In this document: in pieces, positions 1 through 19,696 of the stretch | Position numbering within the stretch: the stretch's first letter is position 1 | Layout of the letters: each line of letters starts with the position of its first letter | Origin: an uncultured Actinomycetes bacterium | GTDB taxonomy: Bacteria; Actinomycetota; Thermoleophilia; RBG-16-64-13 | Assembly (NCBI GenBank): GCA_963841735.1 | Contig: CAWJDT010000005.1 | Span: forward strand, 254,620 to 318,619 | Direction: 5' to 3' | DNA length: 64,000 nt | The notes under the pieces: generated by a model | Told to the model about the DNA's origin: nothing | Seen by the model: only the letters and a program-made list of their open reading frames with translations | Database searches by the model: none | Position numbers and translations under genes: made by a program

Positions 1-503
1 CTGTCTTCCGAGGCGTACATAGCGCGAAGCTCTTCACCAACAGAGGCTGAGAGCGAATCAAAGGCTCTTCGCAGCTTGATTTCGTCCAGCCCACCCAATG
101 CCACTCGCACTGCCTCAGCCGCCACCGGGTTGATGTCGCGACCTACTGCGGTGAGCCCGAGCTTGTGAGCTTCTCCGATTGTAGTTCCAGACCCCATGAA
201 AGGGTCAAAGGCAGTAACGCCTGCGTAGTCTTGCCTGCGATAGAACTCGCTCCGCAAGTCGCTATCGGCCGGAAGGAGGCAGCCGAGAAGGATTCCCCGG
301 AACACGGAACCGAGCCTTTTCGCCCACCACTTGTGCGTGTGGTAAATCGGTCGGTGGATCTCCTTTCGCCAGCTCTCTCGTTCGGCGATGCCCCCTAGAA
401 ACTCAAAGTCAAAAGCATCGGTCTCTATGAGCGCTGGCTGCCCACCGACTACCTGTGCTTCCCGGCTCGCCAGAAGAGGCAGCGTCTCAACACTCGTCTT
501 CAT
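1..503 (-). CDS. DUF1156-type adenine DNA methyltransferase, N-terminal part (runs off the left edge)
   Basis: Not in the ORF track. Manual translation from ATG 503 gives MKTSVETL...ERESWRKEIHRPIYHTHKWWAKRLGSVFR...AFDPFMGSGTTIGEA...GRDINPVA, containing the HKWW.+R motif and SAM-binding motif I. The start overlaps the end of the upstream gene. Confidence 0.85.
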   Translation of the reverse strand, partial: MKTSVETLPLLASREAQVVGGQPALIETDAFDFEFLGGIAERESWRKEIHRPIYHTHKWWAKRLGSVFRGILLGCLLPADSDLRSEFYRRQDYAGVTAFDPFMGSGTTIGEAHKLGLTAVGRDINPVAAEAVRVALGGLDEIKLRRAFDSLSASVGEELRAMYASED

Positions 504-1290
504 CAATATCGCTTTCGCTCAAGACCTCTGCGAAGTCACGGATTCTCACAACATCTGTGGCTGCACCTTTGGCCCGCCATGCTGTGAACCGATGCGCTGT
601 CCCGGCCGCTGGGTTTGGCACACGGCTAGGCTCGATTTCATTGGTCTCAAGATCGAAGGAGTAACCAACAATTAGCTCCGCGGTCTCGACGCGAATGAGA
701 TCGCCGACGGGCACAAGATCATCATTGACTTCAGCCTCACTTGGCAGAATCAGTGTTACCCGATGTGCCAACCCGCCGGCAATTCGGAACGGTGTCGGAG
801 CAACGTACATCTTGCGGTCTCGTATCATGATGTCGCCGTAGCTGCCGAAGCCCTTAACGCTCTTGTTCTTGTGAACATAGTCATGCTGAGCGTTCAGGAA
901 ATCGCCGTGGCAAAGGACAAAGTCGAGTACAGGGTACTGATCACCGTCGGGGTCCTTTGGGTAGCGACCAAACACGTAGTAGATATCCCGCCCGTTATGA
1001 AAGCCAGCCGGAACCTGACTATTACAGTCGAAACTCGCATCCCTACCCGGGTAAGCTAGGCCCTTGATTTCGTAGCCGACAGGAACCGTGACAAGCCGGA
1101 AGTCGGGATAGCTATTCCTGCCCCCCGCCTCGTAATTGAAGCCGGTGCTTGCCACCCGATCCTTGAACCAATTCTGGAAGTGGAACTCCTTGTCGCTGCT
1201 GCTGACGCGGCGGATGAGGACTCCCCGGCCAATGGCACTCGCGCACTCCTTGAAGATGGCTACAGCAGTTTCGTGGGGCTCGTGTTCCAT
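487..1290 (-). CDS. putative PD-(D/E)XK restriction-endonuclease-like protein
   Basis: YPDF...GYEIKG catalytic-type motif. Overlaps the methylase gene. GGAGA RBS precedes ATG 1290 (the ORF track extends to 1365). Confidence 0.6.
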   Translation of the reverse strand: MEHEPHETAVAIFKECASAIGRGVLIRRVSSSDKEFHFQNWFKDRVASTGFNYEAGGRNSYPDFRLVTVPVGYEIKGLAYPGRDASFDCNSQVPAGFHNGRDIYYVFGRYPKDPDGDQYPVLDFVLCHGDFLNAQHDYVHKNKSVKGFGSYGDIMIRDRKMYVAPTPFRIAGGLAHRVTLILPSEAEVNDDLVPVGDLIRVETAELIVGYSFDLETNEIEPSRVPNPAAGTAHRFTAWRAKGAATDVVRIRDFAEVLSESDIDEDEC

Positions 1291-1644
1291 GTGTTGTCTA
1301 TCTCCAGTTATCTTCATTGACGTCGAGAAGCGGCCTCGGCTGCCGCCCCTGCCTACACTGTACAACTAGCATCGGACAGGTACGAGGGTTTGGCTTTGCT
1401 TGTCTTGGAGCTCTTGCTGGTGGTTGAAGAGGGCGCCAATACTATACATATTTATAGCATGATGCCGCGACTTGACACAAGCCAGCGCACCGTACGCTTT
1501 TCGCCATTAACGAAATGAACAGCTGGCATCAGAGCGCCACTCACAAATCATCCTCCCTCTCGAAACTCCGGTCTTTTCTGGGGGGGTGCTAGTCTTCTTG
1601 AGACAGTGGACGACTAATTTGCGGAACCTCTCGGGGGGAAACGC

Positions 1645-2733
1645 TTGGCAGACATCACTCAGGATCTGGAGAGCTTGCTCGGTACGGCCTATGAGCTTTT
1701 CCGGAACTCTGACTGCGCTCGCGAGTGCGAAATCCTTGCGGACGCTCGCGCGGAGATTGAGCAGACCGGGTATGACAATTGGAACGGTGGAACGGATATC
1801 TACCGGGTCGTCCTCGAGATTCCTCTTGATGTCTATGCCAAGTGGGAATCGGAGTTAAAGAGTATCGAGGTCTCCCTCAAGCAAAGGGTCGAGGCGCTTT
1901 TTCGCAAGTATCCCGACGTGTGGCTGGGTGAAGTTGTCATCCTTCCGCAGCTCGCAACTCCTCTCAGGAGGCGAGACCTGCCTTCGTACACTATGTCCAA
2001 TAAGGATCTCGTTGCTGATCTAGAAGCTCAGAAGAACTTGATGATCGCCGTGTCAACTGATGGTCCCAGAATTCAGAAAGTGGACCATGAATATTCGGCG
2101 CGGCAGAAACGCATAGGGGTCGGACTCACTGAGCGTGGCCTGGAGGACCCGAACCCATACGCCGATCTCTGGGCCTGGTACGGGAAATGGAGCAGTGGCG
2201 ACCTACCTTCCTACCAGTCGCGTCGTGTCTACATCGGCGGGCTTCTGAATCCCCTGATACTTCAGCTCAGGAATGAGGCAAGTTCTAGCGACCTCCTCGC
2301 GTCGGTAAGGCCGACCGGATGGCCGCGTGTGGACAGGAACATAGGAGAAGTGCGGTCTACGCTGGGTCGGGCTCGAACCGAGGAACAGTATCAGGCCGTG
2401 GGCCTCCTTTGTCGTGAGACGATGATTTCGCTTGCGCAGGCCGTATACGATGCGCAGAACCATCCGAGCCCTGACGGCGTAGAGGTCAGTGATACCGACG
2501 CCAAGCGCATGTTGGACGCGTTCCTCGCGGCTGAGCTAGGTGGTCAGGAAAACGAAGATGTCCGCCGATATGCAAAGGCCGCTCTTAGCCTCGCTAACGC
2601 GCTTACACACAAGCGAACGGCCGGATTCAGGGACGCGGCTCTATGCGCAGAGGCCACAACTGCCGTCGTCAACATTGTCGCCATTGTGTCTGGCCAGAGA
2701 GACCCGGAACAACTAGGTCCTCGAATAGTGTGA
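1645..2733 (+). CDS. putative abortive-infection-like defence protein (AbiJ-type N-terminus, HEPN-like helical C-terminus)
   Basis: 362-aa ORF with YDNWNGG in the N-terminal domain and AVGLLCRETM...LANALTHKR in a helical C-terminal domain. Lies beside RM genes. Family assigned by motif resemblance only. Confidence 0.5.
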   Translation: MADITQDLESLLGTAYELFRNSDCARECEILADARAEIEQTGYDNWNGGTDIYRVVLEIPLDVYAKWESELKSIEVSLKQRVEALFRKYPDVWLGEVVILPQLATPLRRRDLPSYTMSNKDLVADLEAQKNLMIAVSTDGPRIQKVDHEYSARQKRIGVGLTERGLEDPNPYADLWAWYGKWSSGDLPSYQSRRVYIGGLLNPLILQLRNEASSSDLLASVRPTGWPRVDRNIGEVRSTLGRARTEEQYQAVGLLCRETMISLAQAVYDAQNHPSPDGVEVSDTDAKRMLDAFLAAELGGQENEDVRRYAKAALSLANALTHKRTAGFRDAALCAEATTAVVNIVAIVSGQRDPEQLGPRIV

Positions 2734-2776
2734 GCTAATGCCATATGGGCACGCGACCGCTGTCGACATCAGGCGA

Positions 2777-3979
2777 TCAGCGGGAAACACGGAAACCGAC
2801 GCTCGCGGACGTGTTGCCAGGCGCGAAGTTCAAAGCCAGGTACAGAACCCCAACGCCGCTGCCATCGTACCAATAGCCACCACGAAGGAAGCCACGCGCC
2901 GCGGTTTCGCCAGCATAACTATATAGTCCGCCGACGCCGTTGCCGGTGTTCCAACTACTTGCGCCCGTAATGCCCGTAGAAGCAGGGGTGGCAGGGACAG
3001 TCAGGCTGCCAGGTGCGGTTACAGCTGTCCATTCTTTCCAAGCATACGTACCTTCGCCGGTTATGCCAGGTTGGCCGGTGGTTACTGTGCCACTTGTCCA
3101 TTCCCAGACGTTGCCCGCCATGTCCCAGATGACTTCACCGTTGGTGAGGGTTAGGGTGCGTTTTTGGTCCGAATTGGACACGTTGCCAGTGTCGCTGTAG
3201 CCATCACCAGTATTTGAAACAGCTAGGGCGTTGGCAGGTACGTTGTCGTTATGCCCTCGGTAGATGAAACCAGAACCAACCGTGCCGGTGCTCCAGTTGA
3301 ATGCGACCGACAGAACGTTCTGAGCAATGGTCATCCATTCGGCTTCGGTGATCAGGTGGCAGCCGGTGCAGCCTGCTACGTTGGCGCTATTAGTGATGGC
3401 CGTAGTCTGGGAGATGCTGACCCAAGGTGAACCAGTCGGCTGACTGACCGGGACATTGCTGCCAGCGTCTTTGGCTTCATACTTCATAACACAAAAGTCA
3501 TTGGTGCCATAAGTACCGCTGCCGGGGACCGGTATGAAACCGCTCGGGCAGGCACTGCCGGTTGATGAACCATTGGCGGTCGTGGCGATGGCCGGAGAAG
3601 AGCCGTTAGTGACGGCGTAGGCGGTCGCGTTCTTGGTGGCCGTCAAATGGAAGGTTGAAGGAGCGACGCTGCTATAGGCCAGCGTAGTGCCGGTGCTTGC
3701 TTTCAGGCAGTACTTGCTATCCACCGTCGGAGCAGTCGGACAGTTGCTGCCATCAAGGGCGGTTGGATAAGAGCCGTATTCCACGCCGTACATCTTGAGC
3801 AGCCTGGAAGCATTGTCCAGATCGGATTGGACCGAGGCGACGGTGGCTCGGCTAGTGATGCCGGAGTAGCTAACAACCGTAATCGCGGCTAGGATGCCAA
3901 TGACGACGATTACAACCAAGAGCTCGACTATGGTAAAAGCCGGACGTCGATCCTTGGTCGGGCGCTTGTTGCTACGCAT
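2777..3979 (-). CDS. type IV prepilin-like protein fused to an FGE-sulfatase/C-type lectin domain (DGR-target-like)
   Basis: Prepilin motif AFTIVELLVVIVVIGILAAI. CP.GFI.VPG, FCVMKYEA, HLITEAEW, DMAGNVWEW and terminal RGGYW...VGFR motifs of the FGE/CLec fold. Confidence 0.9.
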   Translation of the reverse strand: MRSNKRPTKDRRPAFTIVELLVVIVVIGILAAITVVSYSGITSRATVASVQSDLDNASRLLKMYGVEYGSYPTALDGSNCPTAPTVDSKYCLKASTGTTLAYSSVAPSTFHLTATKNATAYAVTNGSSPAIATTANGSSTGSACPSGFIPVPGSGTYGTNDFCVMKYEAKDAGSNVPVSQPTGSPWVSISQTTAITNSANVAGCTGCHLITEAEWMTIAQNVLSVAFNWSTGTVGSGFIYRGHNDNVPANALAVSNTGDGYSDTGNVSNSDQKRTLTLTNGEVIWDMAGNVWEWTSGTVTTGQPGITGEGTYAWKEWTAVTAPGSLTVPATPASTGITGASSWNTGNGVGGLYSYAGETAARGFLRGGYWYDGSGVGVLYLALNFAPGNTSASVGFRVSR

Positions 3980-4023
3980 GTATGCATATAGTTTATGCTT
4001 GACTTGAGATTAGCGCAACATGT

Positions 4024-4173
4024 TTATCCACAATCATGCGCAACGTCACTTGCCGGTCTGTCCGATTCCCGAGCAAGACGCACGGCTCGTTCACGGAACT
4101 CGGTCGGATAGCGAACGCCCATCCCGGAGCGACAGCTGGCATTCAAGGTGTCCCAGCCGAACTGTTGCCTGCA
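4024..4173 (-). mobile_element. IS3-family remnant (probable left end plus truncated OrfA)
   Basis: ATG 4122 gives MGVRYPTEFRERAVRLARESDRPASDVAHDCG*, a typical IS3 OrfA HTH start. The upstream sequence TG...GGGACACC (4173..4147) resembles an IS3 terminal repeat. Confidence 0.7.
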
Positions 4174-4843
4174 GCCTAATCCTTTCGCCTCCCTCCAGAA
4201 CTGCCGTGTATGATCCGGGCTTCTCGCCGCGCCACTGCAAGTCGAGTTCGACCGGAAGGTCCTCAAGTGCAGCGGCATCTGCGAGTTGTGATCGGTAGCG
4301 GCCCCCACGCGCGGAGCGTTCAATCATCGGTAGATCCATTTGGATGTCTTGCCCGTTGAGAAGAAGGCGAGGTGCTCCCATTGCGATGTTCGGTGGCACA
4401 CGCAGCTCAAGTTGAAGTTGTACAACCGACCCAACCGACGACAGTATCAAGATTGCACGAGGCTGCAGCCAGGGAGCCGCGCCCACCAGCAGGATGGCCA
4501 GCTTCTCAATCCCTGTATCACTCCACCTCCGCACCGTGCGCTGATCGACATTGTGGAGGCTGCCGAACTCACTAAGGCGCTCAAGCACGTTTTCGCCGCT
4601 ACTATCCCAGCCGATGCTCACCATCGCTGCAGCGATGTCGCGGTCCTCACCGTATTCATCCGCAAGAGAAATCAACCGCTCAAGTGCAACGTCTGCGTCT
4701 CCGTCGCCAAGACCTCTCACGAGCACCTGCGCACGATGAAGACTTGAGGCTGACAACGTCTGCCGGAGCTTGCGCAGCGCCCGTAGTTCTGCGATCAGCA
4801 AGCCTGCAGCCCGACGCCTTCCTGGCATGCCGTCGTCGCCCAT
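4091..4843 (-). CDS. hypothetical protein, possible HTH regulator of the element
   Basis: 250-aa ORF with an HTH-like segment VDQRTVRRW, divergent from the transfer operon. Its 3' end runs into the IS remnant. Confidence 0.5.
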   Translation of the reverse strand: MGDDGMPGRRRAAGLLIAELRALRKLRQTLSASSLHRAQVLVRGLGDGDADVALERLISLADEYGEDRDIAAAMVSIGWDSSGENVLERLSEFGSLHNVDQRTVRRWSDTGIEKLAILLVGAAPWLQPRAILILSSVGSVVQLQLELRVPPNIAMGAPRLLLNGQDIQMDLPMIERSARGGRYRSQLADAAALEDLPVELDLQWRGEKPGSYTAVLEGGERIRLQATVRLGHLECQLSLRDGRSLSDRVP

Positions 4844-4997
4844 CTTGTCACCGCCCTATCACGATCGATTCCTGGCGCTCGCGCTACCACTCACGCCATG
4901 TCACTTCCATGTCATTACAACCCGCCTGGGCCGGGGGTCTAATGGGCCCAGGTGGCCAGAAAAGCCGCTCAGGCAAAACCAAGAGAAAGGATACAAA

Positions 4998-5306
4998 ATG
5001 ATGAGTGGTAAAGGGTTAGCTTTGTCCGGTAGCGATGGTTTCTCGCACCAATCTCTCGACCGGGTCACCCGACCGGTCCAGCGTGAAACTTCGATTGAGC
5101 TGGCACGGACTGCAGGCCAGGGTCAAGTGTTGAAGGCGCGCGAAGATATCCGGGCGGCCATTACCAGCGCGGCCCTGCAGAACGTTGGAGCGCTCAGCGC
5201 ACTCGAACAACACCTGATCGAGGTTGCGCCGATGGGAGCTGAGCGCTATCGGCACATTGTCGACGCCTACACCATGGGCGCCGCCCAGACGATCGCGCGG
5301 TGGTAG
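4998..5306 (+). CDS. small hypothetical protein of the mobile element
   Basis: AGAAAGGA RBS before ATG 4998. First gene of a tightly overlapping run of small ORFs. Confidence 0.7.
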   Translation: MMSGKGLALSGSDGFSHQSLDRVTRPVQRETSIELARTAGQGQVLKAREDIRAAITSAALQNVGALSALEQHLIEVAPMGAERYRHIVDAYTMGAAQTIARW

Positions 5307-5605
5307 TGATGCTTGCGTTTGGCATTACTCTCATCGTTCTTCTCGGCGCGGCCGTGATTGGCGTTGTCTCCCAGCAGTTGATCAAACACTGGCAGGCGGA
5401 GCGACGCCGCCAAGAGATTGGACGAATACAGCGCGAAGTGGCCGAAGCCAAGCGACAGCTGCAAATGCTGGCCACGGCGCACCAGACCTGGCTCAACGAT
5501 CAGGCTCATGAGGTTCGTAAGGCCCTCATCATGGAGTCATTCAGGTACTCGCACGGCGCTGTCCAGCGGGCGAGCAAGAACGAGTCATCGCACTCTGGAT
5601 ACTGA
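5300..5605 (+). CDS. single-TM coiled-coil membrane protein
   Basis: Hydrophobic N-terminus followed by a charged helical region. Overlaps both neighbours. Confidence 0.65.
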   Translation: MVVMLAFGITLIVLLGAAVIGVVSQQLIKHWQAERRRQEIGRIQREVAEAKRQLQMLATAHQTWLNDQAHEVRKALIMESFRYSHGAVQRASKNESSHSGY

Positions 5606-5901: not shown

Positions 5902-6108
5902 ATGAGTCGCACCCCAGAGCATCGCATCTTCATTCGATCAATCAGGAAGGACCCGCCTGATTACGTCAAACTTGGTCAGGCGCTTCTGCGGCTGGCGACC
6001 ATGAAAGCAGCGGCAGAGGCCGAAGCTCCGACCAATAATGAGGCGGCCGACATACCGCCGCCTGTCAGGGTCGAGCCCGAAAGATCTGGGCAGGAGTCCG
6101 AATCATGA
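5902..6108 (+). CDS. small hypothetical protein
   Basis: GGAGGAAGG RBS. ATGA overlap with the coupling protein gene. Confidence 0.65.
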   Translation: MSRTPEHRIFIRSIRKDPPDYVKLGQALLRLATMKAAAEAEAPTNNEAADIPPPVRVEPERSGQESES

Positions 6109-8339
6109 GCGGAATTGTGAATGATCCAACTCTTGCCCTCGTCAGCCTCCTTGGTGCAGGAGCGGCGGCCGGTGGGATCGCGCTTCTGTCTGGGGAGCCT
6201 GAGGAACCTACCGTCTGGTTTCGCCTCAGCTGGCCACGTGAGGTGGACAACAAGGCCGTCGTCGGATTCCTGCGCACCATCGCCAGTGACCGTCAGCGCC
6301 ATGTCGTGGCTCTGGAGGCTATCGGCAGCGGCGGCCAACTGTCTTATCGGATCGGCTTGGCCGAAAAGCGCGCCCAATTCGTCATTGCCCAACTGAAGTC
6401 CTACATCCCCGGCGTATCAGCCGAACTCATCGAGCATGAACAGACCCGCTGCCCGCTCTCCGCCTGGCAAGTCCGCATGAGTTCCCATCAGCGAGCCCTG
6501 CGTACCAGTCAGCCCGAGTCGATCGCCCGGGCCATTATCACCGCTCTGTCCACTATGAGGAGCCAGGAGACTGCCACCGTGCAATGGCTGCTCGGACCGC
6601 GCCTGGAAGCTGCCACCACATCGGAGGGTCTGCTGCGCACCACCTCCTGGAAGCAAACCCTCAAGGGCACCTTTGTGGAAAGCACCAAGCTCGACCCCGA
6701 CACCCGCAAGGCCATTAAGGAAAAGAGCGAGGAGGCCGGATTCCGGGCGGTCTGCCGCATCGGTGTCCTCGCATCCAGCGATCAGGCCGCGGATATCATC
6801 GCGAGCAGGCTGGTGGGCGCGCTTCGCACGGCGGAGGCCCCCGGCGTGCGCATAACACTTAGAAGAGAGAACCCGGAACGCATCGCCCTGGCCAGGCCAC
6901 CGAGAAGCTGGCCGCTCGCCGTCAATGTCGAGGAGTTGGCCTCGCTCCTCGGTTGGCCTCTCGGTGAGATGAGTTATCCCGGCATCAATCGGGAGGGCGC
7001 ACGCCTTCTGCCGCCTAGTCCCATGGTTGCCCGGCACGGCCGCGTTCTTGCCGCCGCCAGCTACCCCGGAAGTGCGCAGAGGTTGGCTCTTAGCACTACC
7101 GACTCGCTACAGCACCTTCACTTGTTAGGACCGACCGGTGTCGGCAAGTCCACCCTCATGCTCAACCTCATTGTCCAGGACATGGCGGCCGGGCGCGGCG
7201 TGGTAGTCATCGACCCCAAGGGCGATCTCATCCAAGACGTGCTGGAGCGGGTGCCTATGGATCGCCAAAAAGATGTCGTCGTGCTCGATCCGGCGGACGA
7301 ACGCCGCCCGGTAGGCTTGAACGTCTTGCAGGGCGGCGGACGCTCACGGGAGCTGATCGCCGATCAGGTGCTGGCGGTCTTTCATGATCTCTACCGAGAG
7401 AACTGGGGACCACGTACCCAGGACATCCTGCACGCCTCGCTGCTGACGCTGGCAGGCAAACCGGGTATAACACTCTGCGCGCTGCCGATCCTGCTATCGA
7501 ATCGGGCCTTTCGCAAGTCAGTGACTCGCGACATCACCGACGGCATCGCCCTCAAGCCGTTCTGGAACTGGTTCGAGACCTTGAGCGAAGGCGAACGTCA
7601 ACAGGCAATCGCACCGGTCATGAACAAGCTGCGGGCCTTCTTGCTGCGGCCTAGCATGCGCGCGGTTATCGGCCAGGCTGAGCCGCGCTTCGATATTGAG
7701 ACCGTCTTTAGTAGCGGGGCCATCCTGCTGGTATCGCTCGCTAAGGGACTGCTGGGTCCGGAAGCCGCTGCGCTCCTGGGATCGCTCACTATCTCCCATC
7801 TATGGCAAGCGGCCCTAGGACGCGCCCGGGTCCCAGCGAATTCGCGCTCTCCGGTCTTCATCCATATCGATGAGTTCCAGGACTACATCCACCTGCCGAC
7901 CGACCTGGCCGAGGTGTTGGCTCAGGCTCGGGGACTGGGCGTCGGGCTGACCCTCGCACATCAGCACCTGGCCCAGCTGCCACCCGCCCTCAGGTTCGCC
8001 GTGCTGGCCAACGCTCGCTCGCGGGTCTGCTTCCAACTTGGGCATGAAGACGCCAAGCTGGTTGCGGCTGGACTGTCTGAAATCGGCCCGCTCGACCTTC
8101 AGAGTCTAGGCCGCTATGAAGCCTACCTGTCTCTGGTGGCCGAAGGCAACGTCACACCGTACGCCTCCGGGCGCACTATCGCCCCGCCTGAGCCCAGCAG
8201 CAATGCGCAGGCCATCCGCCGGATGAGCCGCGAGCGTTTCGGTCGAGACCTAGCCGACATCGAGCGCGACATCGCCGCCCAACTCGGTGAAAACGCCGCC
8301 CCCGAAGAGTCACCGATTGGCCGCAGGAGGTCATCATGA
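6105..8339 (+). CDS. VirD4/TraD-like type IV coupling protein (conjugative DNA transfer ATPase)
   Basis: Walker A GPTGVGKS, VIDPKGD, Walker B IHIDEFQ, ARGLGVGLTLAHQ and an N-terminal TM segment. Confidence 0.9.
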   Translation: MSGIVNDPTLALVSLLGAGAAAGGIALLSGEPEEPTVWFRLSWPREVDNKAVVGFLRTIASDRQRHVVALEAIGSGGQLSYRIGLAEKRAQFVIAQLKSYIPGVSAELIEHEQTRCPLSAWQVRMSSHQRALRTSQPESIARAIITALSTMRSQETATVQWLLGPRLEAATTSEGLLRTTSWKQTLKGTFVESTKLDPDTRKAIKEKSEEAGFRAVCRIGVLASSDQAADIIASRLVGALRTAEAPGVRITLRRENPERIALARPPRSWPLAVNVEELASLLGWPLGEMSYPGINREGARLLPPSPMVARHGRVLAAASYPGSAQRLALSTTDSLQHLHLLGPTGVGKSTLMLNLIVQDMAAGRGVVVIDPKGDLIQDVLERVPMDRQKDVVVLDPADERRPVGLNVLQGGGRSRELIADQVLAVFHDLYRENWGPRTQDILHASLLTLAGKPGITLCALPILLSNRAFRKSVTRDITDGIALKPFWNWFETLSEGERQQAIAPVMNKLRAFLLRPSMRAVIGQAEPRFDIETVFSSGAILLVSLAKGLLGPEAAALLGSLTISHLWQAALGRARVPANSRSPVFIHIDEFQDYIHLPTDLAEVLAQARGLGVGLTLAHQHLAQLPPALRFAVLANARSRVCFQLGHEDAKLVAAGLSEIGPLDLQSLGRYEAYLSLVAEGNVTPYASGRTIAPPEPSSNAQAIRRMSRERFGRDLADIERDIAAQLGENAAPEESPIGRRRSS

Positions 8340-9253
8340 CCCTCCCGTTCGCCCTCCCGCTCGCGTGGCCTTGGCTTTTCGAGACCACCTGCAAATCCGA
8401 GGCAAACCGCTTGCGCTGCGCGACGACTCTTAGTCTCTCTCGTATGCATTCTTCGAGAGACAAGGCTATGAGGCGCGGCCCCTCTGCTCATGGCGTTAGG
8501 CAGACTCTCAGTGAACGCGATGAAGCCATCATCAGGAGCGTAGAGGACTACCGCTATATGTCCTCCGGTCAGCTAGAGCTGCTGCACTTCTCCGACCAGG
8601 CCAGCCAACCGACCGCCGCCAGAACTTGCCGACGAGTGCTGTCGCGCCTCACCAAATTGGGCCTGCTATGGCAGCTTGAACGACGCATCGGAGGGGTGCG
8701 GGCAGGCTCGGCCTCCTACGTCTATGGCCTGGGAGCGCTGGGCTATCGGATTCTGCATGAGGGCTCGCCACCGAGGCAGAACGAACCGTCGACCCAGTTT
8801 CTCGATCACACGCTCGCCATCACCGGGCTGGCCGTCGATCTGCACGTCCAGGAGAGGAGCGGCTCGCTGGAGCTTCTCGAAGTCGCGACCGAGCCAAAAT
8901 GCTGGCGGCCGTTCACCGTCGGCCTGGAAAGTAGCGAGACCCTGAAGCCGGACCTCTTCGTCTCGCTGCGCTCCGGTGGCTACGAGTACCACTGGTTCGT
9001 CGAGGTCGATCTTGCCACTCATAGCGCCGCCTCGGTGCTTCGTAAATGTGCCATCTATCAGAAGTACTGGCAGACAGGCATTGAACAAGACAGGTCGGGG
9101 GTATTTCCGAAAGTCCTCTGGGTCACTCCGTACACCCGGCGGCAAGCGCTAATTCGACGCTCGATCTCGGCCTCTCGCCAGCTTCACCCGGATCTCTTTC
9201 AAGTGTGCAGTCGTGAGGCCGCCGTGGCCTGCCTGACGGGGGAAGAGTCATGA
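8336..9253 (+). CDS. replication-relaxation (Replic_Relax) family protein
   Basis: LSERD..II winged-helix start, FLDHTLAI, TEP.CWR, LKPD...WFVEVDLAT...K...Y motifs. AGGAGG precedes ATG 8336 (alternative start 8468). Confidence 0.88.
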   Translation: MTLPFALPLAWPWLFETTCKSEANRLRCATTLSLSRMHSSRDKAMRRGPSAHGVRQTLSERDEAIIRSVEDYRYMSSGQLELLHFSDQASQPTAARTCRRVLSRLTKLGLLWQLERRIGGVRAGSASYVYGLGALGYRILHEGSPPRQNEPSTQFLDHTLAITGLAVDLHVQERSGSLELLEVATEPKCWRPFTVGLESSETLKPDLFVSLRSGGYEYHWFVEVDLATHSAASVLRKCAIYQKYWQTGIEQDRSGVFPKVLWVTPYTRRQALIRRSISASRQLHPDLFQVCSREAAVACLTGEES

Positions 9254-10380
9254 GGCCGCTGCCGCTCGGACAGGTCATGGTCGGCGACGCCCGCCAAGTC
9301 CTGGACAGCCTGCCGGAGCATTCGGTCGACTGCGTCATAACCAGCCCGCCGTATTACCGGCTGCGCAACTACCAGCACGATGATCAGATTGGGCTGGAGG
9401 CGCATGTCGAGGACTGGGTGCGCGAACTGCGCGCCGTGGCCCGCAAGATCGCCAGAGTCCTAAAAGAGGAAGGAGCCTTTTGGTTGAGCCTTGGCGACAC
9501 GTTCTCGCGCTCAACAGAAGACGGAGCACTGCCGAAGTCACTCGTTCTGGCCCCGGAGCGCTTGGCTCTCGCTCTTATCAAGGACGGGTGGATTCTGCGC
9601 AACAAGGTGGTGTGGGCCAAGACCAACCCCATGCCGACCAGCGTACGCGACCGGCTCAGCTGCACCCACGAGTACCTGTATTTCTTCGTCCGCCGCCGCC
9701 ACTACTACTTTGATCTGGATGCCATCCGCATGCCGCATGTCAGCCCGCCTAACAAGGTCAGCGCAAGCGCCGGGACTTGGTCCGTGCCGCCAGGCTGGCG
9801 CGGGCCGAATAGCGGGCGCAACGAGGGCTTGGGCCGACTCAAACGGGCGGGTCTGGCTGGGCATCCGCTCGGCAAGAACCCCGGCGATGTGTGGCGCCTG
9901 GCCACGGCTGGCTATCGCGGGCAGCATCACGCTGTATTCCCGGAACGCTTGGTCGAACGGCCGCTGCTTGCCAGCTGCCCAGAGAAGGTCTGCTCGGCCT
10001 GCGGCAAGGCCTGGACCCGGCGGAGAGCGAAGTCACTAGGTCACGTGGCCGTCACTGCAACGCTGGCCCCAAATTGCCCATGCAAAGCAGGACCTCTCCC
10101 CGGCGTTGTCCTTGATCCGTTTATCGGCTCAGGCACGGTGGCGGTGGTAGCTGAGCGCCACAAACGCGACTGGATGGGAATCGACATCAACCCGACCTTC
10201 TCATCGCTCGTCGCCGGTCGGCTGGGGAACGCTCCCGCTAAGTATTCAACAGAACCCGCCCGGTCCGTTTCTCGATCAAACGCAGCCCATGCGCCAGGAC
10301 GCCCTGCGCCCGTGGGCTGCGCCACACCGAGAAGGCACGGCAACGAAGACAAACACGGAATCAAGGAGGTCAACGGATGA
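9250..10380 (+). CDS. site-specific DNA methyltransferase (N4-C/N6-A, beta-class motif order)
   Basis: Catalytic ITSPPY precedes SAM-binding VLDPFIGSGT. Also WAKTNPMP, HEY and H.AVFP motifs. Confidence 0.92.
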   Translation: MRPLPLGQVMVGDARQVLDSLPEHSVDCVITSPPYYRLRNYQHDDQIGLEAHVEDWVRELRAVARKIARVLKEEGAFWLSLGDTFSRSTEDGALPKSLVLAPERLALALIKDGWILRNKVVWAKTNPMPTSVRDRLSCTHEYLYFFVRRRHYYFDLDAIRMPHVSPPNKVSASAGTWSVPPGWRGPNSGRNEGLGRLKRAGLAGHPLGKNPGDVWRLATAGYRGQHHAVFPERLVERPLLASCPEKVCSACGKAWTRRRAKSLGHVAVTATLAPNCPCKAGPLPGVVLDPFIGSGTVAVVAERHKRDWMGIDINPTFSSLVAGRLGNAPAKYSTEPARSVSRSNAAHAPGRPAPVGCATPRRHGNEDKHGIKEVNG

Positions 10381-10673
10381 AGACTCTTGCCATTCGCATG
10401 GAGGAGGATCAGCACGCCCAGATGAGCGTTCTCGCTCAGCTTTCCGGTCGGACCATCACCGACGAGATACGGGAAGCCATCGAGACGCACATCGAAAGCA
10501 AGCGTTCCAATCCCGAGCTGACGGCCAAGGCCCAGGACGTTCTCGATGACATCGAGCGTCAGGCGCACGTCCGCCAATACGCGATCATCACGCTGTTCGG
10601 AGAGGGCGCCAAGCCCGAGCCGAAAAAAGCCGACGCCCACAAAGAGCCGACCCCAAACACCCCGTCCAAGTAA
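10377..10673 (+). CDS. ribbon-helix-helix-like DNA-binding protein
   Basis: MKTLAIRMEE...LAQLSGRTITDEIREAI RHH pattern. AAGGAGG RBS. Confidence 0.7.
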   Translation: MKTLAIRMEEDQHAQMSVLAQLSGRTITDEIREAIETHIESKRSNPELTAKAQDVLDDIERQAHVRQYAIITLFGEGAKPEPKKADAHKEPTPNTPSK

Positions 10674-10705
10674 CTTTTCTCTCGCCTGCAGCCACTCGGT
10701 GTTGC

Positions 10706-10747
10706 GGGGACCTGGTTCGCGGACAGAATCCGTCGAACCAGGTCCCC
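10706..10747 (+). terminator. strong hairpin after the transfer operon
   Basis: 14-bp perfect stem GGGGACCTGGTTCG / CGAACCAGGTCCCC. No U-tract. Confidence 0.5.
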
Positions 10748-10831
10748 AGGAATCACAAAATCCCTGCAAAACCGTTGTAGAATTGTCCCTATGCGATGCG
10801 TTTTCGCATCGTTCCTGGTAGAATAGAGGGA

Positions 10832-11215
10832 ATGAAACCGCGACGAAGGCGGGGATTTGGGATGACAAAAGAAGAGACAGAAAGACTCGGCGAACTATTG
10901 AAGGCGAAGCGGCAACAGCTTGGCCTGTCAACACACCGCCTGGCGAAGCTGGCTGACGTTGACCAGGCCACGGTCGTCCGAATCGAGAGCGGGGGTATCA
11001 GCGCGCCCCACTCTGACAAGCTCGCACGCATCGCGGCTGCGCTGGAACTACCTGCGAGCAAGGTCTTCGCCCTGGCCGGCTACTTCTTCCCGAACGACCT
11101 GCCAGAGCTGTCCACCTATCTCAGGCTGCAATATCCGGAACTACTCGCAGAAGACAGAGTGAAGATCGAGCAACTAATTGGACGACTAGAAAAGAAACGC
11201 AAAGTAGCTATCTAA
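10832..11215 (+). CDS. XRE-family HTH transcriptional regulator
   Basis: LGELLKAKRQQLGLSTHRLAKLADVDQATVVRIESG. Start is 10832 or 10862. Confidence 0.88.
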   Translation: MKPRRRRGFGMTKEETERLGELLKAKRQQLGLSTHRLAKLADVDQATVVRIESGGISAPHSDKLARIAAALELPASKVFALAGYFFPNDLPELSTYLRLQYPELLAEDRVKIEQLIGRLEKKRKVAI

Positions 11216-11243
11216 GGCAATGGGCCAGAAAGGAGGGAGGGTA

Positions 11244-12974
11244 ATGGCACCAGAACACACAGATGAGGCGGGCACCATGGACGAACGCACAGCGAGTCCG
11301 GTTCAAGCAGGAGACGTGCGTGCAGTCATATACCTGCGCGTTTCGACGAGGGAGCAAGCTGAGATGGGCGGCGAAGCGGAGGGATACTCCATCCCGGCTC
11401 AACGAGCAGCCTGCACACGCAAGGCCGGTTCCCTGAATGCTTTTGTCACTGAGGAGTTCGTCGACCGAGGCGAGAGTGCCAAGACCGCCAATCGCCCCGA
11501 ATTGATGAACATGCTCCGATACCTACGCGAGCACCCCGTCCAGTACGTCATCGTGCACAAGGTTGACCGTCTGGCCCGCAACAGAGCCGATGATGTCGCC
11601 ATCACCGTGGCGGTGAAGAATGCCGGGGCGACCCTCGTCTCCTGCTCCGAGAACATCGACGAGACGCCGAGCGGCCTTCTCTTGCACGGCATCATGAGTT
11701 CAATCGCAGAGTTTTACAGTGCCAACCTGGCGACCGAAGTCCGCAAAGGAATGGACCAGAAGGCCAAGACTGGTGGAACGCCTACAAAGGCTCCGGTCGG
11801 CTACCTGCATGTCCGCCGGCTGGAAAATGGCCACGAGGTCAAGACGATCGAAGTAGATCCCGACCGCGCGCCCCTCGTCCTGCTGGCGTTTCAGCTCTAC
11901 GCCACCGGGCAATGGACGATTAGCGAGCTGAACGACAAGCTCGCTGATATGGGTCTCACATCCCGACCCGGCCCCAACACCCCAGCCAAACGCATGAGTC
12001 GGGCGGCCTTCCATATGGTGCTCTGCAACCCCTACTACATCGGCAAGGTAAAACATCGCGGGATGCAGTATGACGGCAACCACCCACCTCTGATCCCTCT
12101 CGAGCTTTTCAACCAAGTTCAGGCCATGTTGGTGGCGCATCGGCACGCAGGGGAAAAGCAACAGACCTACATCCACTACCTCAAAGGCAGCATATTCTGC
12201 GGCACGTGCGGCGCCAAGCTCAGCCTCATGAACCCGCGCAGCTGCAACGGCGATCTCTATCACTACTTCTTCTGCCTGGGGCGGCAGTACAACAAGCACA
12301 GCTGCTCGCAGAAGGTCATGGATATCACTCAAGTCGAGAAGCTGGTCGAGGAGCACTACCTGACAATCCAGCTACCAGAAGAACGGGTAGCGGAGATCAC
12401 CTATTCGCTGCGGCAGGCCCTAGCCGACCACCGCGAAGAGGCGGAAGCGGCCGAGCGACTGGAGACTCTGAGAATAAGCCGCCTGAGCAAGGAACGGGAG
12501 AAGCTTTTGCAGCTTCACTATGCGGATGCCGTTCCAGCCGATCTATTCAAGCAGGAGGCGGGGCGCATCACCCGCGAACTTGAAGAGGCCCGTCGGCAGC
12601 TGGCGATCGTCTCAGTCTCCTTCGATACGATTGAGAAGAACATGGAACGAGCCCTCAAACTGGCCCGAGATTGCTACACGGCCTACAAAGACGCAGACGA
12701 CACGACTAGACGGCTTTTCAACCAGGCGTTCTTCGACAAGCTCCTCATCTGCTACGACGGCACGGTGACGCACGAGTTGGCTGAGCCCTTCAAGCTGCTA
12801 CTCGACCCAGACTTAGTCGGTTGGTTCAAGCCAAAGGGAAGATCAAGGAAAGCGGCAGGGGCAAGCAACACCGCGCGGAGGGCTGATAACGCCAACAGCC
12901 TGGCTTTTGGCCAGGCTGTTGGTTCAAACAACGAAACTTTGGTGGGGGATACTGGATTTGAACCGGCAAGATGA
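11244..12974 (+). CDS. large serine recombinase (integrase)
   Basis: YLRVS catalytic Ser, DRLARN, recombinase domain, Zn ribbon CGTCG...C...C and coiled coil. GGAGGGAGG RBS before ATG 11244. Confidence 0.95.
   Translation: MAPEHTDEAGTMDERTASPVQAGDVRAVIYLRVSTREQAEMGGEAEGYSIPAQRAACTRKAGSLNAFVTEEFVDRGESAKTANRPELMNMLRYLREHPVQYVIVHKVDRLARNRADDVAITVAVKNAGATLVSCSENIDETPSGLLLHGIMSSIAEFYSANLATEVRKGMDQKAKTGGTPTKAPVGYLHVRRLENGHEVKTIEVDPDRAPLVLLAFQLYATGQWTISELNDKLADMGLTSRPGPNTPAKRMSRAAFHMVLCNPYYIGKVKHRGMQYDGNHPPLIPLELFNQVQAMLVAHRHAGEKQQTYIHYLKGSIFCGTCGAKLSLMNPRSCNGDLYHYFFCLGRQYNKHSCSQKVMDITQVEKLVEEHYLTIQLPEERVAEITYSLRQALADHREEAEAAERLETLRISRLSKEREKLLQLHYADAVPADLFKQEAGRITRELEEARRQLAIVSVSFDTIEKNMERALKLARDCYTAYKDADDTTRRLFNQAFFDKLLICYDGTVTHELAEPFKLLLDPDLVGWFKPKGRSRKAAGASNTARRADNANSLAFGQAVGSNNETLVGDTGFEPAR
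12921..12964. other. probable hybrid att site of the serine recombinase, with a tRNA 3'-end fragment as the right arm
   Basis: Inverted repeat GGTTCAAA (12921-12928) / TTTGAACC (12957-12964) centred on GT 12942-12943. The minus strand reads GGTTCAAATCCAGTATCCCCCACCA (T-loop, acceptor strand, ACCA). Confidence 0.75.
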
Positions 12975-14514: not shown

Positions 14515-15522
14515 CTATTCCCCCTGCCAGTCGCTCTGCCATACCACCGACCCTGTCGTGTCCACATAGGCCAAGGTGCTCATCAGCTGCACCGCCGCCA
14601 ACCCTCCCGCAAACGGGTCGCCCGCGTCATACCGCGGCGTGATGACGAACGAGCCGCTCGTGTCCACATATCCCCAAAGACCGCCGTCCTCTGCCTGCAC
14701 CGGAGCCAGCCCCTCGCCAAAGGGCCATGCGTCGGCGAACTGGGGCTCGACCGCCCAAGCCCCGCTGGTGTCGATGTAGCCCCATTTGCCCTTCTCCCTG
14801 TCGTATGCCGCGGCCAGCCCATCGGAGAACGGTCTCACCAGGCTGAACCCCGGCCGGATGACCCAGGCGCCGGTCTGGTCGATGAAGCCCCAACCATCGC
14901 CGACCACAACCGCCGCAAGCCCGTCGGAGAAGGCCATGGCGCCGTCGAACCGAGCCTCGATCACCCAAGCACCGGCATCGTCTATGTAGCCGAACTTGCC
15001 CCCCGCCCCTGCCATCGCCAGACCGCCCGACAAACTCTCCGCGTACTCGAACTCGGCCGCGATCACCAACGAACCAGCGCTATCGATGTAGCCCCACAGG
15101 CCATCGGACTCCGGCTGCACGGCCGCCAGACCTTCGGAGAACGACCAGGCGTTGGCGAACTGCGCTTGTATCAAGAATGATCCGCTACTGTCGATGTATC
15201 CCCACCTGCTCTGGTTGCCGGTGCGCACCAAGGCGAGACCCTCGGAGAACGGCCAGGCCTCGTAGTACCTCGGCTGGATGACCAGCGCACCGCTCCCGTC
15301 CATGTAGCCCATCTGCCCGTCGGCGACGATGGGATAGAGCTGTGAGGCATCGATCATGCCGGTGGCGCCCGTGCCGCCGGTGGTGCCGGGACCGGCCGCG
15401 CCAACCCCAGTCGTGACCGAGCCCCCGACCCCTGGATGACCGGCTTCGGACGAAGAACAGCCGGCAAACGCAACCGCCCCTACCAGCAGCAGAACCACGA
15501 GGAGCATGAACAGGCGTCTCAT
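14515..15522 (-). CDS. WG (KWG)-repeat lipoprotein 1
   Basis: Signal peptide with lipobox FAGC, Gly/Thr linker, repeated FSEGLA...WGYID..G..VI.P units. Confidence 0.9.
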   Translation of the reverse strand: MRRLFMLLVVLLLVGAVAFAGCSSSEAGHPGVGGSVTTGVGAAGPGTTGGTGATGMIDASQLYPIVADGQMGYMDGSGALVIQPRYYEAWPFSEGLALVRTGNQSRWGYIDSSGSFLIQAQFANAWSFSEGLAAVQPESDGLWGYIDSAGSLVIAAEFEYAESLSGGLAMAGAGGKFGYIDDAGAWVIEARFDGAMAFSDGLAAVVVGDGWGFIDQTGAWVIRPGFSLVRPFSDGLAAAYDREKGKWGYIDTSGAWAVEPQFADAWPFGEGLAPVQAEDGGLWGYVDTSGSFVITPRYDAGDPFAGGLAAVQLMSTLAYVDTTGSVVWQSDWQGE

Positions 15523-15526
15523 CGAA

Positions 15527-16780
15527 TCACGGCGCCGTGACCGCCGAAGTTGTGGGGTGCGGTGTACTCTGCCAGACCACCTTGCCGGTGGTGTCGATAT
15601 AGGCCTTCGCAAACGCGGCTCCGGGTCGCCCTTGCACCAGGGCGAGACCACCGGAAAAGGCCCAGGCATAGTGATACTGCGGCTCGACCACCACGGCGCC
15701 CGTCGTGTCAATGTATCCGTATCTCGTCACCCCGCCCTCCCGCGTCTCGACCGCGGCAAGGCCTTCGGAGAAGTCGTACGTCATAGAGTATTGCGGCTGT
15801 ATGGCCATCGTTCCGGTACGATCCATGTAGCCGTGCCCTCTCTCGCCCCCAACCGCGGCAAGGCCTTCGGCGAAGCGAGAGCTCTGTTCGAACCGGGGCT
15901 CGATGACGAATGCACCGGTAGCGTCGATGAAACCCCATTTGTCTTCGGCCATGACCGCCGCGAGCCCTTCGGAAAAAGACTCCGCGTCGTCAAACTGGGC
16001 CTCGATCACCCAGGCCCCCGTCTTGTCGATGTAGCCATACTTGGTCACGTCGCCGTCCAAAACCGCCACAGCGGCAAGCCCCTCGGAGAAAGCGGCGGCT
16101 TCCTCAAAGTGCACCTTGACCACCCGCTTGCCGGTGGTGTTCATATAGCCCCACTTGCCCTTGTCAGACACCGCCGCCAGTCCCTCCGAGAACGGCTCCA
16201 CATAGTTGGAGTCAGGCTCGATAACAAACTGCCCTGTCTTGTCGATGAAACCCGTGGCATTGTCGGCGAGAGTCACGAGCGCGAGACCGTCGGAGAAGGG
16301 GTACGCGAACGCGTACTGCGGCTCGACCACCACGGTCCCGGTCAAGTCGATGAACCCCCACTTTGAGTCCACGGTCACAACCGCGAGACCCTCGTAGAAA
16401 GGTTCGGCGTACTGAAAGCGCGGCTCGATGGCCACTTTGCCCGTCTTGTCGATATAGCCGTAGGTGCCGGTGGCATCATCCAGAACCGGGAAGAGCGGCC
16501 CCGCGGCAGGGGTGATACCGTCCGAGACGGTGGTTGTGACGGGGGCCAACGCGCCGCCGGCAGCAGTGGAGCCGTCATCCCTCAGGGCGTAGTAGACGCC
16601 GCCGCCGATGGCGGCCACCGTGATCACGATACCCAGGCCCCAGAGCAGCAGCCTTCCACGGCGTCCCAAGAAGCGAGGCTCCTTGGTGACCGACAGCTCC
16701 GCGGCGCCCTTGGATTCACCGGTCACCAGCTTCTGGCCCTCAGGCGGCGCGTCTTGTCTCAACAGAGTGGTTCTCCTCAC
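15527..16780 (-). CDS. WG-repeat protein 2 with an N-terminal TM anchor
   Basis: TM segment LLLWGLGIVITVAAIGGGVYY followed by WG repeats. Confidence 0.9.
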   Translation of the reverse strand: MRRTTLLRQDAPPEGQKLVTGESKGAAELSVTKEPRFLGRRGRLLLWGLGIVITVAAIGGGVYYALRDDGSTAAGGALAPVTTTVSDGITPAAGPLFPVLDDATGTYGYIDKTGKVAIEPRFQYAEPFYEGLAVVTVDSKWGFIDLTGTVVVEPQYAFAYPFSDGLALVTLADNATGFIDKTGQFVIEPDSNYVEPFSEGLAAVSDKGKWGYMNTTGKRVVKVHFEEAAAFSEGLAAVAVLDGDVTKYGYIDKTGAWVIEAQFDDAESFSEGLAAVMAEDKWGFIDATGAFVIEPRFEQSSRFAEGLAAVGGERGHGYMDRTGTMAIQPQYSMTYDFSEGLAAVETREGGVTRYGYIDTTGAVVVEPQYHYAWAFSGGLALVQGRPGAAFAKAYIDTTGKVVWQSTPHPTTSAVTAP

Positions 16781-16904
16781 GGTTATGCGCGGCCGGAGCC
16801 CGCCCTCCTCAGCGTAGGCTTAAACGCTACCTGCAGGCGACGACGCGGTCAAGGCCGGCGCGTACTGCATTCTTCGCCCGCCAGACCACTTCTGGTGGCC
16901 CACC

Positions 16905-19585: not shown

Positions 19586-19696
19586 GTCTACCCCTCCGAT
19601 CATGCTATTCCCCAACGTGATAGCCGATTGGACTGATCCTACTCGCACCAGGTTTCCCCCGGCCGCGCGCGACTCGGGCGACGCCGCTCCGCCCGC

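Follow-up and report, generated by a model that had tools for sequence, protein, structure and literature searches.

We analysed a 64,000-nt stretch of DNA, called the window here, which is C5:254620-318619 of a 2.82-Mb genome assembled in 8 contigs (89.7% complete, 2.3% contamination) and lies on a contig of 318,619 bp. The gene in question, at 2777..3979, encodes a type IV pilin-like N-terminus joined to a domain of the C-type-lectin (CLec) kind and is carried in an island of ~24 kb with a guanine-plus-cytosine (GC) content of 56-59%, compared to 62-65% in the chromosome. The island is made up of the leftmost ~13 kb of the window and ~11 kb upstream of it, and the gene sits ~12 kb and ~11 kb inside the island ends. 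The first-pass annotation of this DNA had taken the gene to be lone cargo, which turned out to be wrong, as a second gene that is 67% identical to it was found 10.4 kb upstream in the same island, just beyond the window edge; the two are referred to as copy 1 and copy 2. What appears to be new is that this pilin-CLec gene, in the form of a single-gene cassette with a promoter, has been captured repeatedly into mobile defence islands that belong to genomes of high GC, probably actinobacterial ones, while the protein design itself, that of a pilin-CLec target of a diversity-generating retroelement (DGR) in the Candidate Phyla Radiation (CPR), was known already. The two copies and the features within copy 1 and upstream of it are as follows.

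2777..3979, minus strand: pilin-CLec gene copy 1, 400 aa, with leader residues 1-14, a head to about residue 140 and the CLec domain at about 141-400
2798..2875, minus strand: segment resembling a DGR variable region, about residues 369-394, with ten codons for which related active DGRs have AAY in their templates
3990..4018, minus strand: promoter-like element, with -35 hexamer TTGCGC (4018-4013), 17-nt spacer and -10 hexamer TAAACT (3995-3990)
C5:245748-246947 (L002:10746-11948), minus strand: pilin-CLec gene copy 2, 400 aa, between a 716-aa candidate nuclease and a 415-aa open reading frame (ORF), near genes for Old and for a cyclic-oligonucleotide-based antiphage signalling system (CBASS)

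The N-terminus of copy 1 reads MRSNKRPTKDRRPA followed by FTIVELLVV, and the predicted leader cut site lies between RRPA and FTIVELL, so that the protein has the short basic leader, the Phe at +1, the Glu at +5 and the hydrophobic segment of a prepilin. In Pfam, residues 13-34 matched N_methyl (PF07963; E 1.1e-5, 25.2 bits, curated cut-off 21.2) and residues 173-300 matched FGE-sulfatase (PF03781; E 2.6e-5, 24.4 bits, cut-off 23.3), and in NCBIfam the protein matched TIGR02532 at 23.3 bits (cut-off 16.3) and gave a GspG-like match at residues 15-78. When a profile of 104 homologues was used, solved type IV pilins were matched at the N-terminus, the best being 9egp_A (E 1.2e-17), and formylglycine-generating enzyme (FGE) chains in the PDB were matched weakly by sequence (E 0.7-0.9). 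The AlphaFold2 model built from the alignment of these 104 homologues (mean predicted local distance difference test score 94.4, predicted template modelling score 0.89) has a helix at 17-68, a small beta head built from the strands at 81-124 and, towards the C-terminus, an alpha/beta domain, and it has the lollipop fold of pilins with a long alpha1 helix on a beta-sheet head. In a structure search the best match to residues 135-400 was TaqVP (5vf4_A; Z 20.0, root-mean-square deviation 3.1, 223 residues aligned), other matches being TvpA (2y3c_A, Z 14.1), an FGE paralogue (Z 13.5) and Mtd (Z 13.2), and residues 12-161 resembled type IV pilins, namely PilA4 (6xxd_A, Z 9.4) and minor pilins (Z ~8, 8.3-8.6). 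The prepilin N-terminus fused to an FGE/CLec domain that had been read from the letters at first pass is thus upheld by two family matches above their cut-offs, with which the model agrees, and copy 1 is predicted to be a modular type IV pilin carrying an FGE-type CLec ligand-binding domain. Catalytic FGE has a cysteine pair in its C-terminal active-site segment; there is no cysteine in the last 50 residues of copy 1, which therefore does not have the mark of a catalytic FGE. The residue at -1 is Ala in 20 of the 111 motif-bearing sequences among 120 listed homologues, both host copies included, so that Ala there is natural variation within the family. That this Ala is an adaptation specific to the host was considered and ruled out, as 18 of the other 109 motif-bearing top homologues share it and the native host pilins have Gly.

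Among 2100 homologues the best non-self ones had 59-69% identity along the full length, and where an organism was named it was Candidatus Saccharibacteria. When one genome per species was searched (185,579 species; best 80 of 114 relatives kept), the named records in the 38 best loci were all Saccharibacteria, Saccharimonas or Saccharimonadales, and the next name was that of a Leucobacter isolate. In an 81-row tree (the trees reported here are quick trees) both copies fell inside a 64-row clade with 100% support in which the named rows are all Saccharimonadota. No full-length copy was found in 60 genomes of the host genus, family and class, which gave generic pilin N-terminus matches (best E 3e-10) and one C-terminal match in G058 (E 4.7e-13), and a profile search of 400 genomes drawn evenly from the phylum gave no full-length match either. 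The closest homologues were therefore not vertically inherited actinobacterial genes (0/60 and 0/400), the outcome that the first-pass annotation had named as speaking against its proposal of a Saccharibacteria-like pilin in a mobile element, and that proposal was borne out by the homologue search, the nesting of both copies and the lack of a full-length copy in relatives. Flank GC was compared at the 105 homologue loci whose flank came to 1.5 kb or more, taken from the genome set and from a scan of JGI metagenome contigs (best 80 of 277 relatives kept); the median was 0.41 and 94 of the 105 were below 0.50. The family is thus native to Saccharibacteria and other CPR bacteria, and both copies were acquired horizontally by a non-CPR host. 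A duplication after capture, which would make copies 1 and 2 sisters, is unsupported, as no tree resolved the pairing; a tree of the CLec part pairs copy 1 with P0003 (97% SH-aLRT).

The family holds true DGR targets. A nearby repeat of the last ~120-160 nt, with 84-100% of the mismatches at template adenines, was found for 9 of 96 homologue genes, and all five of the loci with such a template repeat (TR) that were examined have bAvd and RVT_1 directly downstream, while five loci without a TR have neither. When the variable codons were aligned to the TRs of L027 and L040 and five island-borne copies were compared, the columns with A in both templates varied in 25/26 cases compared to 52/102 of the other columns (Fisher p 9e-6), and at the ten AAY codons positions 1 and 2 varied at 20/20 sites and position 3 stayed C or T in 9/10. 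RVT_1 had no match in the 89.7%-complete host genome, and no TR was found across the island and the genome, where the 3' ends of the two copies match each other only (62%, without adenine bias). As the AAY-codon signature is present though no reverse transcriptase (RT) or TR was found, both copies are former DGR targets, and as neither remains, their binding site is frozen. The first-pass call of a DGR target thus stands for the family but for copy 1 as a former and not a current target, and what follows from this is that frozen DGR products can persist as ordinary genes.

In the fold of residues 135-400 copy 1 is like TaqVP (PDB 5VF4), TvpA (2Y3C) and Mtd (1YU0), and its C-terminal variable codons match AAY template codons, but unlike these proteins it is fused behind a type IV pilin, has no cognate TR or RT and lies in a non-CPR genome, within a mobile defence island. 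With the pilin-CLec DGR targets of Saccharibacteria and other CPR bacteria (L027, L040, L064, L086, L091) it shares 50-70% identity along the full length, the leader, the pilin head, the CLec scaffold and a GFRVSR end. These targets sit in epibiont genomes of 37-52% GC, partly with bAvd and RVT_1 directly downstream, whereas the island copies have 57% GC and no DGR and lie among defence and transfer genes in a 2.8-Mb genome. DGRs are reportedly abundant in CPR bacteria, a finding ascribed to Paul et al. in 2017, as cited in PMC10221324.

The start codon of copy 1 is 10 nt downstream of the -10 hexamer, and the ~43 nt preceding the ATG are AT-rich, as was noted at first pass (16 G+C among 43 nt). 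A 28-nt upstream stretch is common to copies 1 and 2 and also to other island copies, and an upstream element of ~45 nt is common to all five island copies, with TTGCGC or TTGCAC at -35, a 17-nt spacer, TAAACT or TATACT at -10 and the start codon within ~10 nt. Several Saccharibacteria homologues are preceded by a similar TGCTAnACT-N7-ATG arrangement. A sigma-70 consensus scan of window 2500-4400 called no promoter, and the element is read as promoter-like because it is conserved upstream of the five island copies and because of the hexamers themselves. Each copy is a single-gene cassette with its own promoter-like element.

The flank GC was 0.55 or higher in 7 of the 105 loci. Two of them, L084 and L065, hold distant homologues (38-42%) beside PilB/RuvB or a DGR and look like native CPR-type contexts, and the other five hold closer homologues (45-74%) in mobile or defence settings.

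L112: type III restriction endonuclease-like helicase, Old, then pilin-CLec
L114: type I restriction-modification (RM) S and R, GajA (E 6.5e-170), GajB (E 1.1e-117), then pilin-CLec
L123: integrase fragment, Old, 398-aa ORF, pilin-CLec in two frames, then a CBASS cyclase
L142 and L060 (Leucobacter sp. isolate): TraD-like gene (37% and 33% identical to that of the island) and MT-A70 methylase

Related elements therefore do carry similar genes, which was one of the checks proposed at first pass. The group of five island copies was set by GC and context before the trees were built, and in an approximately unbiased (AU) test with 29 rows a single clade of these copies was rejected (delta lnL 135.5, p-AU 3e-41); L112 and L114 group with low-GC rows (96-97% support) and L123 groups with Saccharibacteria rows (95%). 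As one clade of island copies is rejected, capture into high-GC islands took place at least twice. L112 and L123 have Old proteins that share 95% identity, whereas their pilins are just 58-69% identical, and the pilins of L112 and L114 are 82% identical despite different upstream systems. L112 and L114 are homologous at the DNA level from ~73 nt ahead of the start codon, with 84% identity in the gene; the homology is lost in its last ~100 nt and returns downstream for ~600 nt, at 91.5% (L112:7847-9859, L114:7848-9785). In this pair 23/26 template-adenine columns differ compared to 23/102 of the others (p 8e-10), and there is no RT or TR on either contig. This suggests that the binding site was rewritten or exchanged after the cassette had entered high-GC genomes. 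Leucobacter, to which the isolate genome belongs, is a proven host of Saccharibacteria according to the part of the co-culture report that was available (PMC9894109). No report of such a capture was listed in full-text searches on Saccharibacteria gene transfer, host defence islands or epibiont resistance, though the supplements of the pilus papers may list CLec-type pilins. Whatever the function, this is a concrete and recurrent case in which genes have passed from CPR epibionts to the mobile gene pool of the organisms that are probably their hosts, and the gene would mark which uncultured Actinomycetota interact with Saccharibacteria.

Several observations were made on these loci besides. 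In L123:4619-5817 the pilin-CLec gene is split into overlapping frames of 163 aa and 236 aa, which is either a frameshifted pseudogene or a sequencing error. A repeat of 58-74 nt that contains GGTTCGAGAGTTGTCC occurs at gene boundaries in L112 (10608-10665, 11504-11561 and 13479-13536) and L114 (7766-7839 and 11785-11858), and one of its occurrences is immediately upstream of the pilin cassette in L114; it could be a site of recombination or a conserved terminal part of small paralogous genes, and it was found neither in the window nor in L002. Cassette boundaries made of tRNA fragments were rejected as a candidate, as there is no tRNA in L112, L114, L123, L142, L060 or L002. A Saccharibacteria-style pilin N-terminus fused to Fib_succ_major was seen in 2 of 80 relatives of the Leucobacter isolate, at loci of 53-55% GC, and the proteins concerned, of 386-420 aa, are encoded at L103:646-1803, L104:1393-2652 and L105:1357-2586; they could represent a second kind of epibiont-type pilin that was captured, here by Microbacteriaceae-like genomes.

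Copies 1 and 2 are both intact at a dN of 0.27 and a dS of 1.72, which is saturated, with a ratio of ~0.16, and their last 45 residues are the most divergent (48% identity). Both copies are kept under purifying selection. Their gene GC is 57-58% and their GC at third codon positions (GC3) is 63-68%; the GC exceeds that of every close Saccharibacteria homologue measured (0.38-0.56), and this composition fits long residence in high-GC genomes. That the copies are functionless hitch-hikers swept into the island by chance would be suggested by the L123 copy, which is in two frames, so that at least one island copy may be decaying. However, it is at odds with the intactness of both copies at this divergence and ratio, with the promoter-like element that is kept across five diverged island copies and with the recurrence of independent captures, and we consider it improbable.

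A further explanation is an artefact of assembly or binning in which a Saccharibacteria fragment was mis-joined to an actinobacterial contig. The genome is a draft with the completeness and contamination given above, no public run had more than 8% of the words of window:1500-5500, and among the short contigs obtained from four runs none bridges the 3' junction of the gene. Against this, two short contigs, which come from two studies, span the 5' junction, one of them (3947-4097) at 0 differences, so that the read check which the first-pass annotation had proposed across the junctions came out for one side and not for the other. Moreover, the island is flanked on both sides by genes with host-genus orthologues in the one contig of 318,619 bp; the gene GC of 57% and the GC3 of 63-68% differ from the 41% median flank GC of the homologue loci; the neighbours are Old, CBASS and TraD genes, with the nearest plasmid matches in Streptomyces; and the same arrangement is seen again on other contigs and in the genome of an isolate. 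A chimeric assembly is unlikely, and we give a mis-joined fragment almost no chance of being the explanation.

The other features of the island are given from left to right.

Left part of the island, beside copy 2: candidate nuclease, 716 aa
Right of copy 2, before the Old-type gene: ORF of 415 aa
Right of the 415-aa ORF: Old-type ATPase-TOPRIM
L002:15366-18012: CBASS-like module, two different cyclases (PADLOC Cyclase E 5e-117 and 2e-87) and one S_4TM effector
3..1365, minus strand: start of a DUF1156-type N6/N4 DNA methylase, which extends upstream past the window edge, and a 292-aa ORF (487-1365); PglX, MTase_II and DUF1156_MTase models
1645..2733, plus strand: 362-aa ORF, possibly Abi-type, convergent with the pilin gene (look-alikes AbiTii 0.97 and AbiJ_NTD3 0.92)
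4024..4323, minus strand: possible IS3-family OrfA helix-turn-helix fragment (HTH_Tnp_1, E 0.0015, below the Pfam cut-off)
4091..5605: three small ORFs of 250 aa (minus strand), 178 aa and 101 aa (plus strand), with no function given
6105..8339, plus strand: TraD/VirD4-like coupling ATPase (TrwB_AAD_bind, T4SS-DNA_transf)
8336..9253, plus strand: Replic_Relax relaxase-like protein (E 5.2e-40)
9250..10380, plus strand: N6_N4 DNA methylase
11220..12974, plus strand: large serine recombinase (Resolvase, Recombinase, Zn_ribbon_recom), approximate right end of the island

The GC climbs from 56-59% to 62-65% beyond the serine recombinase. The best plasmid matches of the TraD-like ATPase were in Streptomyces and Embleya (36-40%), and it is 33% identical over 690 aa to a protein of the Leucobacter contig L060. 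From its gene content the island is an integrated mobilisable element carrying Old, CBASS, methylase and nuclease-type cargo. That copy 1 sits between an Abi-like gene and an IS3 remnant, as was stated at first pass, is weakly supported: the 362-aa ORF had no match in Pfam, NCBIfam or PADLOC and has its Abi names from language-model look-alikes only, and the helix-turn-helix match of the other neighbour is below the cut-off. Orthologues of the glycosyltransferase of the left flank were found at 77-87% in 6/15 host-genus genomes and those of the SpoIIE phosphatase of the right flank at 41-71% in 8/15. No empty site was found in the genus relatives, in which the two flanks are not adjacent, and the island ends are approximate; in G004 the left flank is inverted and ~15.7 kb of unrelated genes of native GC lie between both flanks.

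The ETF-QO encoded in the window is 74-78% identical to proteins labelled Actinobacteria bacterium RBG_16_64_13, Actinomycetia, Thermoleophilia and Actinobacteria, with closest matches up to 90%, and the host chromosome is probably that of an uncultured Actinomycetota lineage. The host has pilB-pilT-pilC as an operon that lies among housekeeping genes, along with another PilB-like gene, a single A24 prepilin peptidase and seven native prepilin genes, all with Gly at -1; the type IV pilus and prepilin peptidase genes that the first-pass annotation had suggested looking for are thus present. In whole-genome family searches the matches to T2SSE, T2SSF and Peptidase_A24 were all outside the window. 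The first-pass statement that the window has no pilus, RT or avd gene therefore agrees with these searches for the pilus machinery and for RVT_1, and avd was not searched for separately in this genome.

How the island prepilin might act is suggested by this machinery and by the neighbouring genes. The A24 prepilin peptidase and PilB/PilT/PilC of the host would process and display it, and it would be displayed on host pili, or prime them, or be retained as a membrane-anchored pseudopilin. The lectin head would bind actinobacterial cell-wall glycan, the kind of ligand bound by Saccharibacteria pilus adhesins, and the bound head would occupy or mask a receptor used by epibionts and possibly by phages. 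As described in the portions of the pilus papers that were available, the pilus adhesins of Saccharibacteria have host peptidoglycan and cell-wall polysaccharide as their ligands, and susceptibility is altered when these polysaccharides change (PMC11623550; bioRxiv 10.64898/2026.10.06.756255). Such surface interference, by which the receptor of epibionts and perhaps of phages is masked or occupied, is the role that we favour, since Old, Gabija, RM and CBASS genes are repeatedly the direct neighbours of the gene, but it is held tentatively and at somewhat less than an even chance. An adhesin or decoy function was put forward at first pass; we infer it likewise, and the recurrent defence-island context makes it more plausible.

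The TraD-linked copies favour another role, which is the main rival of surface interference, namely that the lectin pilin encoded by the element binds actinobacterial walls and thereby holds donor and recipient together, or builds aggregates or biofilm, and so raises the transfer of the element itself. Copy 1 is only 2.1 kb from the TraD-like/Replic_Relax module, the homologues of L060 and L142 each share a short contig with the TraD-like gene and the MT-A70 methylase, and the homologue in the Saccharibacteria locus L091 lies between a Replic_Relax gene and type IV secretion system (T4SS) pilin genes. However, the immediate neighbours in L112, L114 and L123 are defence genes and no transfer genes were seen on those contigs, the window has no recognisable mating-pore set, and mating has no obvious need for two diverged copies per island. 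On balance a transfer or aggregation adhesin is possible but unlikely, roughly a one-in-several prospect, and surface interference is kept as the preferred role.

The defence-island contexts that suggest surface interference would also suit a bulky lectin pilin which, in the host type IV pilus or in a wall coat, blocks pilus- or glycan-dependent phages, the epibionts being merely gene donors, and the native type IV pilus of the host could be used by phages. In searches for the family, however, no homologue was found in 50,697 phage records and there were 2 matches in a viral contig collection, so that no phage link was seen; plasmids gave only two weak Janthinobacterium matches. There was no match to any PADLOC model, and the binding site would have been written in an epibiont lineage, with no evident reason to fit phage receptors. 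Protection against phages as the main role is therefore a poor candidate.

Several points weigh against surface interference, and some of them against the capture on which it is built. PADLOC-DB 2.0 (5027 models) matched neither copy, nor the L112 and L114 homologues; the defence-island setting is guilt by association, and any mobile element commonly carries defence genes. The copies of L060 and L142 adjoin transfer genes (TraD-like, MT-A70) and not defence genes, which suits a transfer role at least as well. With Ala at -1 in the island pilins compared to Gly in the seven native ones, processing by the host peptidase is not assured. The characterised adhesins of TM7x, PilX1 and PilX2, have folds other than CLec in the text available to us (PMC11623550). 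Finally, L112, L114, L123 and L142 are known as contigs only, the host lineage was called from a single marker protein (ETF-QO), and of the two junctions of copy 1 the 5' one alone is bridged by independent short contigs.

A wider proposal is that actinobacterial hosts of ultra-small epibionts repeatedly capture the DGR-written pilus adhesins of these epibionts into mobile defence islands and express them as receptor-blocking decoys, in which case the nearly complete difference at template-adenine sites between the L112 and L114 alleles, which are otherwise 84% identical and share a high-GC cassette, would come from ongoing updating of the decoy, be it through renewed capture, through gene conversion or through the action of a DGR in trans. 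We regard this as speculative, with perhaps one chance in a few of being right. If the decoy were real, it would be the first 'anti-epibiont' immunity gene and a bacterial counterpart of receptor interference by endogenous viral envelopes. Endogenous retroviral env genes and phage superinfection exclusion, in which a parasite attachment protein expressed by the host blocks the receptor, are the conceptual analogue; to our knowledge these concern viruses, and nothing comparable has been shown for bacteria and their epibionts in the literature searched. What is known of bacterial resistance to cellular epibionts such as Saccharibacteria, in the part of the preprint consulted, concerns changes in the wall polysaccharide of the host (bioRxiv 10.64898/2026.10.06.756255). 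If hosts do recycle a parasite attachment protein, this would be a new class of immunity, and a co-culture of Leucobacter with TM7i exists according to the available portion of the report (PMC9894109).

Three known kinds of pilin can be compared with copy 1. The shufflon-varied PilV tip adhesins of the R64 thin pilus are type IV pilins of a mobile element whose variable C-terminus sets which cells are bound; PilV differs from copy 1 in being type IVb with its own machinery, in varying by site-specific inversion and not by retro-mutagenesis, and in having a mating role that was shown by experiment. PilX1 and PilX2 of Nanosynbacter lyticus TM7x are type IV pilins of Saccharibacteria onto which a carbohydrate-binding module is grafted and which bind the host wall, as given in the parts of the papers that were available (PMC11623550; bioRxiv 10.64898/2026.10.06.756255), and they serve as the functional model for the pilin-CLec family in its native lineage. 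They differ in fold, being described in the accessible text as a beta-jelly roll and a seven-bladed beta-propeller (PMC11623550), and the comparison is one by description. [quoted passage not shown]

Some minor observations concern the family in its native setting. Saccharibacteria homologues lie near Replic_Relax genes at L024:4668-5447 and at L091:3125-3937 and 9493-11350, in L091 also near T4SS pilin genes, and the family is thus at times mobile-element cargo within Saccharibacteria too. A vehicle shared between Saccharibacteria and the host has no support past the family level, as the Replic_Relax proteins of L024 and L091 are without BLASTP similarity to that of the island (E 10 and 0.026). 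When the island ORFs were compared with the genome-contig loci L022-L101, the only matches were TraD (L060) and a 27%-identical serine recombinase (L065). In the Saccharibacteria loci L022-L059 the pilin-CLec genes are nearly always richer in GC than their locus (0.53 compared to 0.44 and 0.54 compared to 0.43), which probably comes from their Gly/Ala/Thr/Ser-rich composition. The relatives P0013, P0020, P0116, P0092 and P0102, of ~660-690 aa, are 40-55% identical in the CLec part and have FGE-sulfatase early or late in the chain, which in some cases begins with a pilin N-terminus; these relatives could be tandem-CLec forms. In the host phylum, a 251-aa frame at G359:C69:371-751 matched the pilin part of the family profile only (E 6.9e-46).

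Two observations concern the surroundings of the island. Five WG_beta_rep paralogues flank it on both sides (window 14515-19648 and L002:7203-8060), and it is into this array, or next to it, that integration of the island may have taken place. Farther into the window, at 30551-32099, overlapping ORFs correspond to positions 3-187 and 188-346 of the MFS_1 profile and are probably a frameshifted or split transporter gene.

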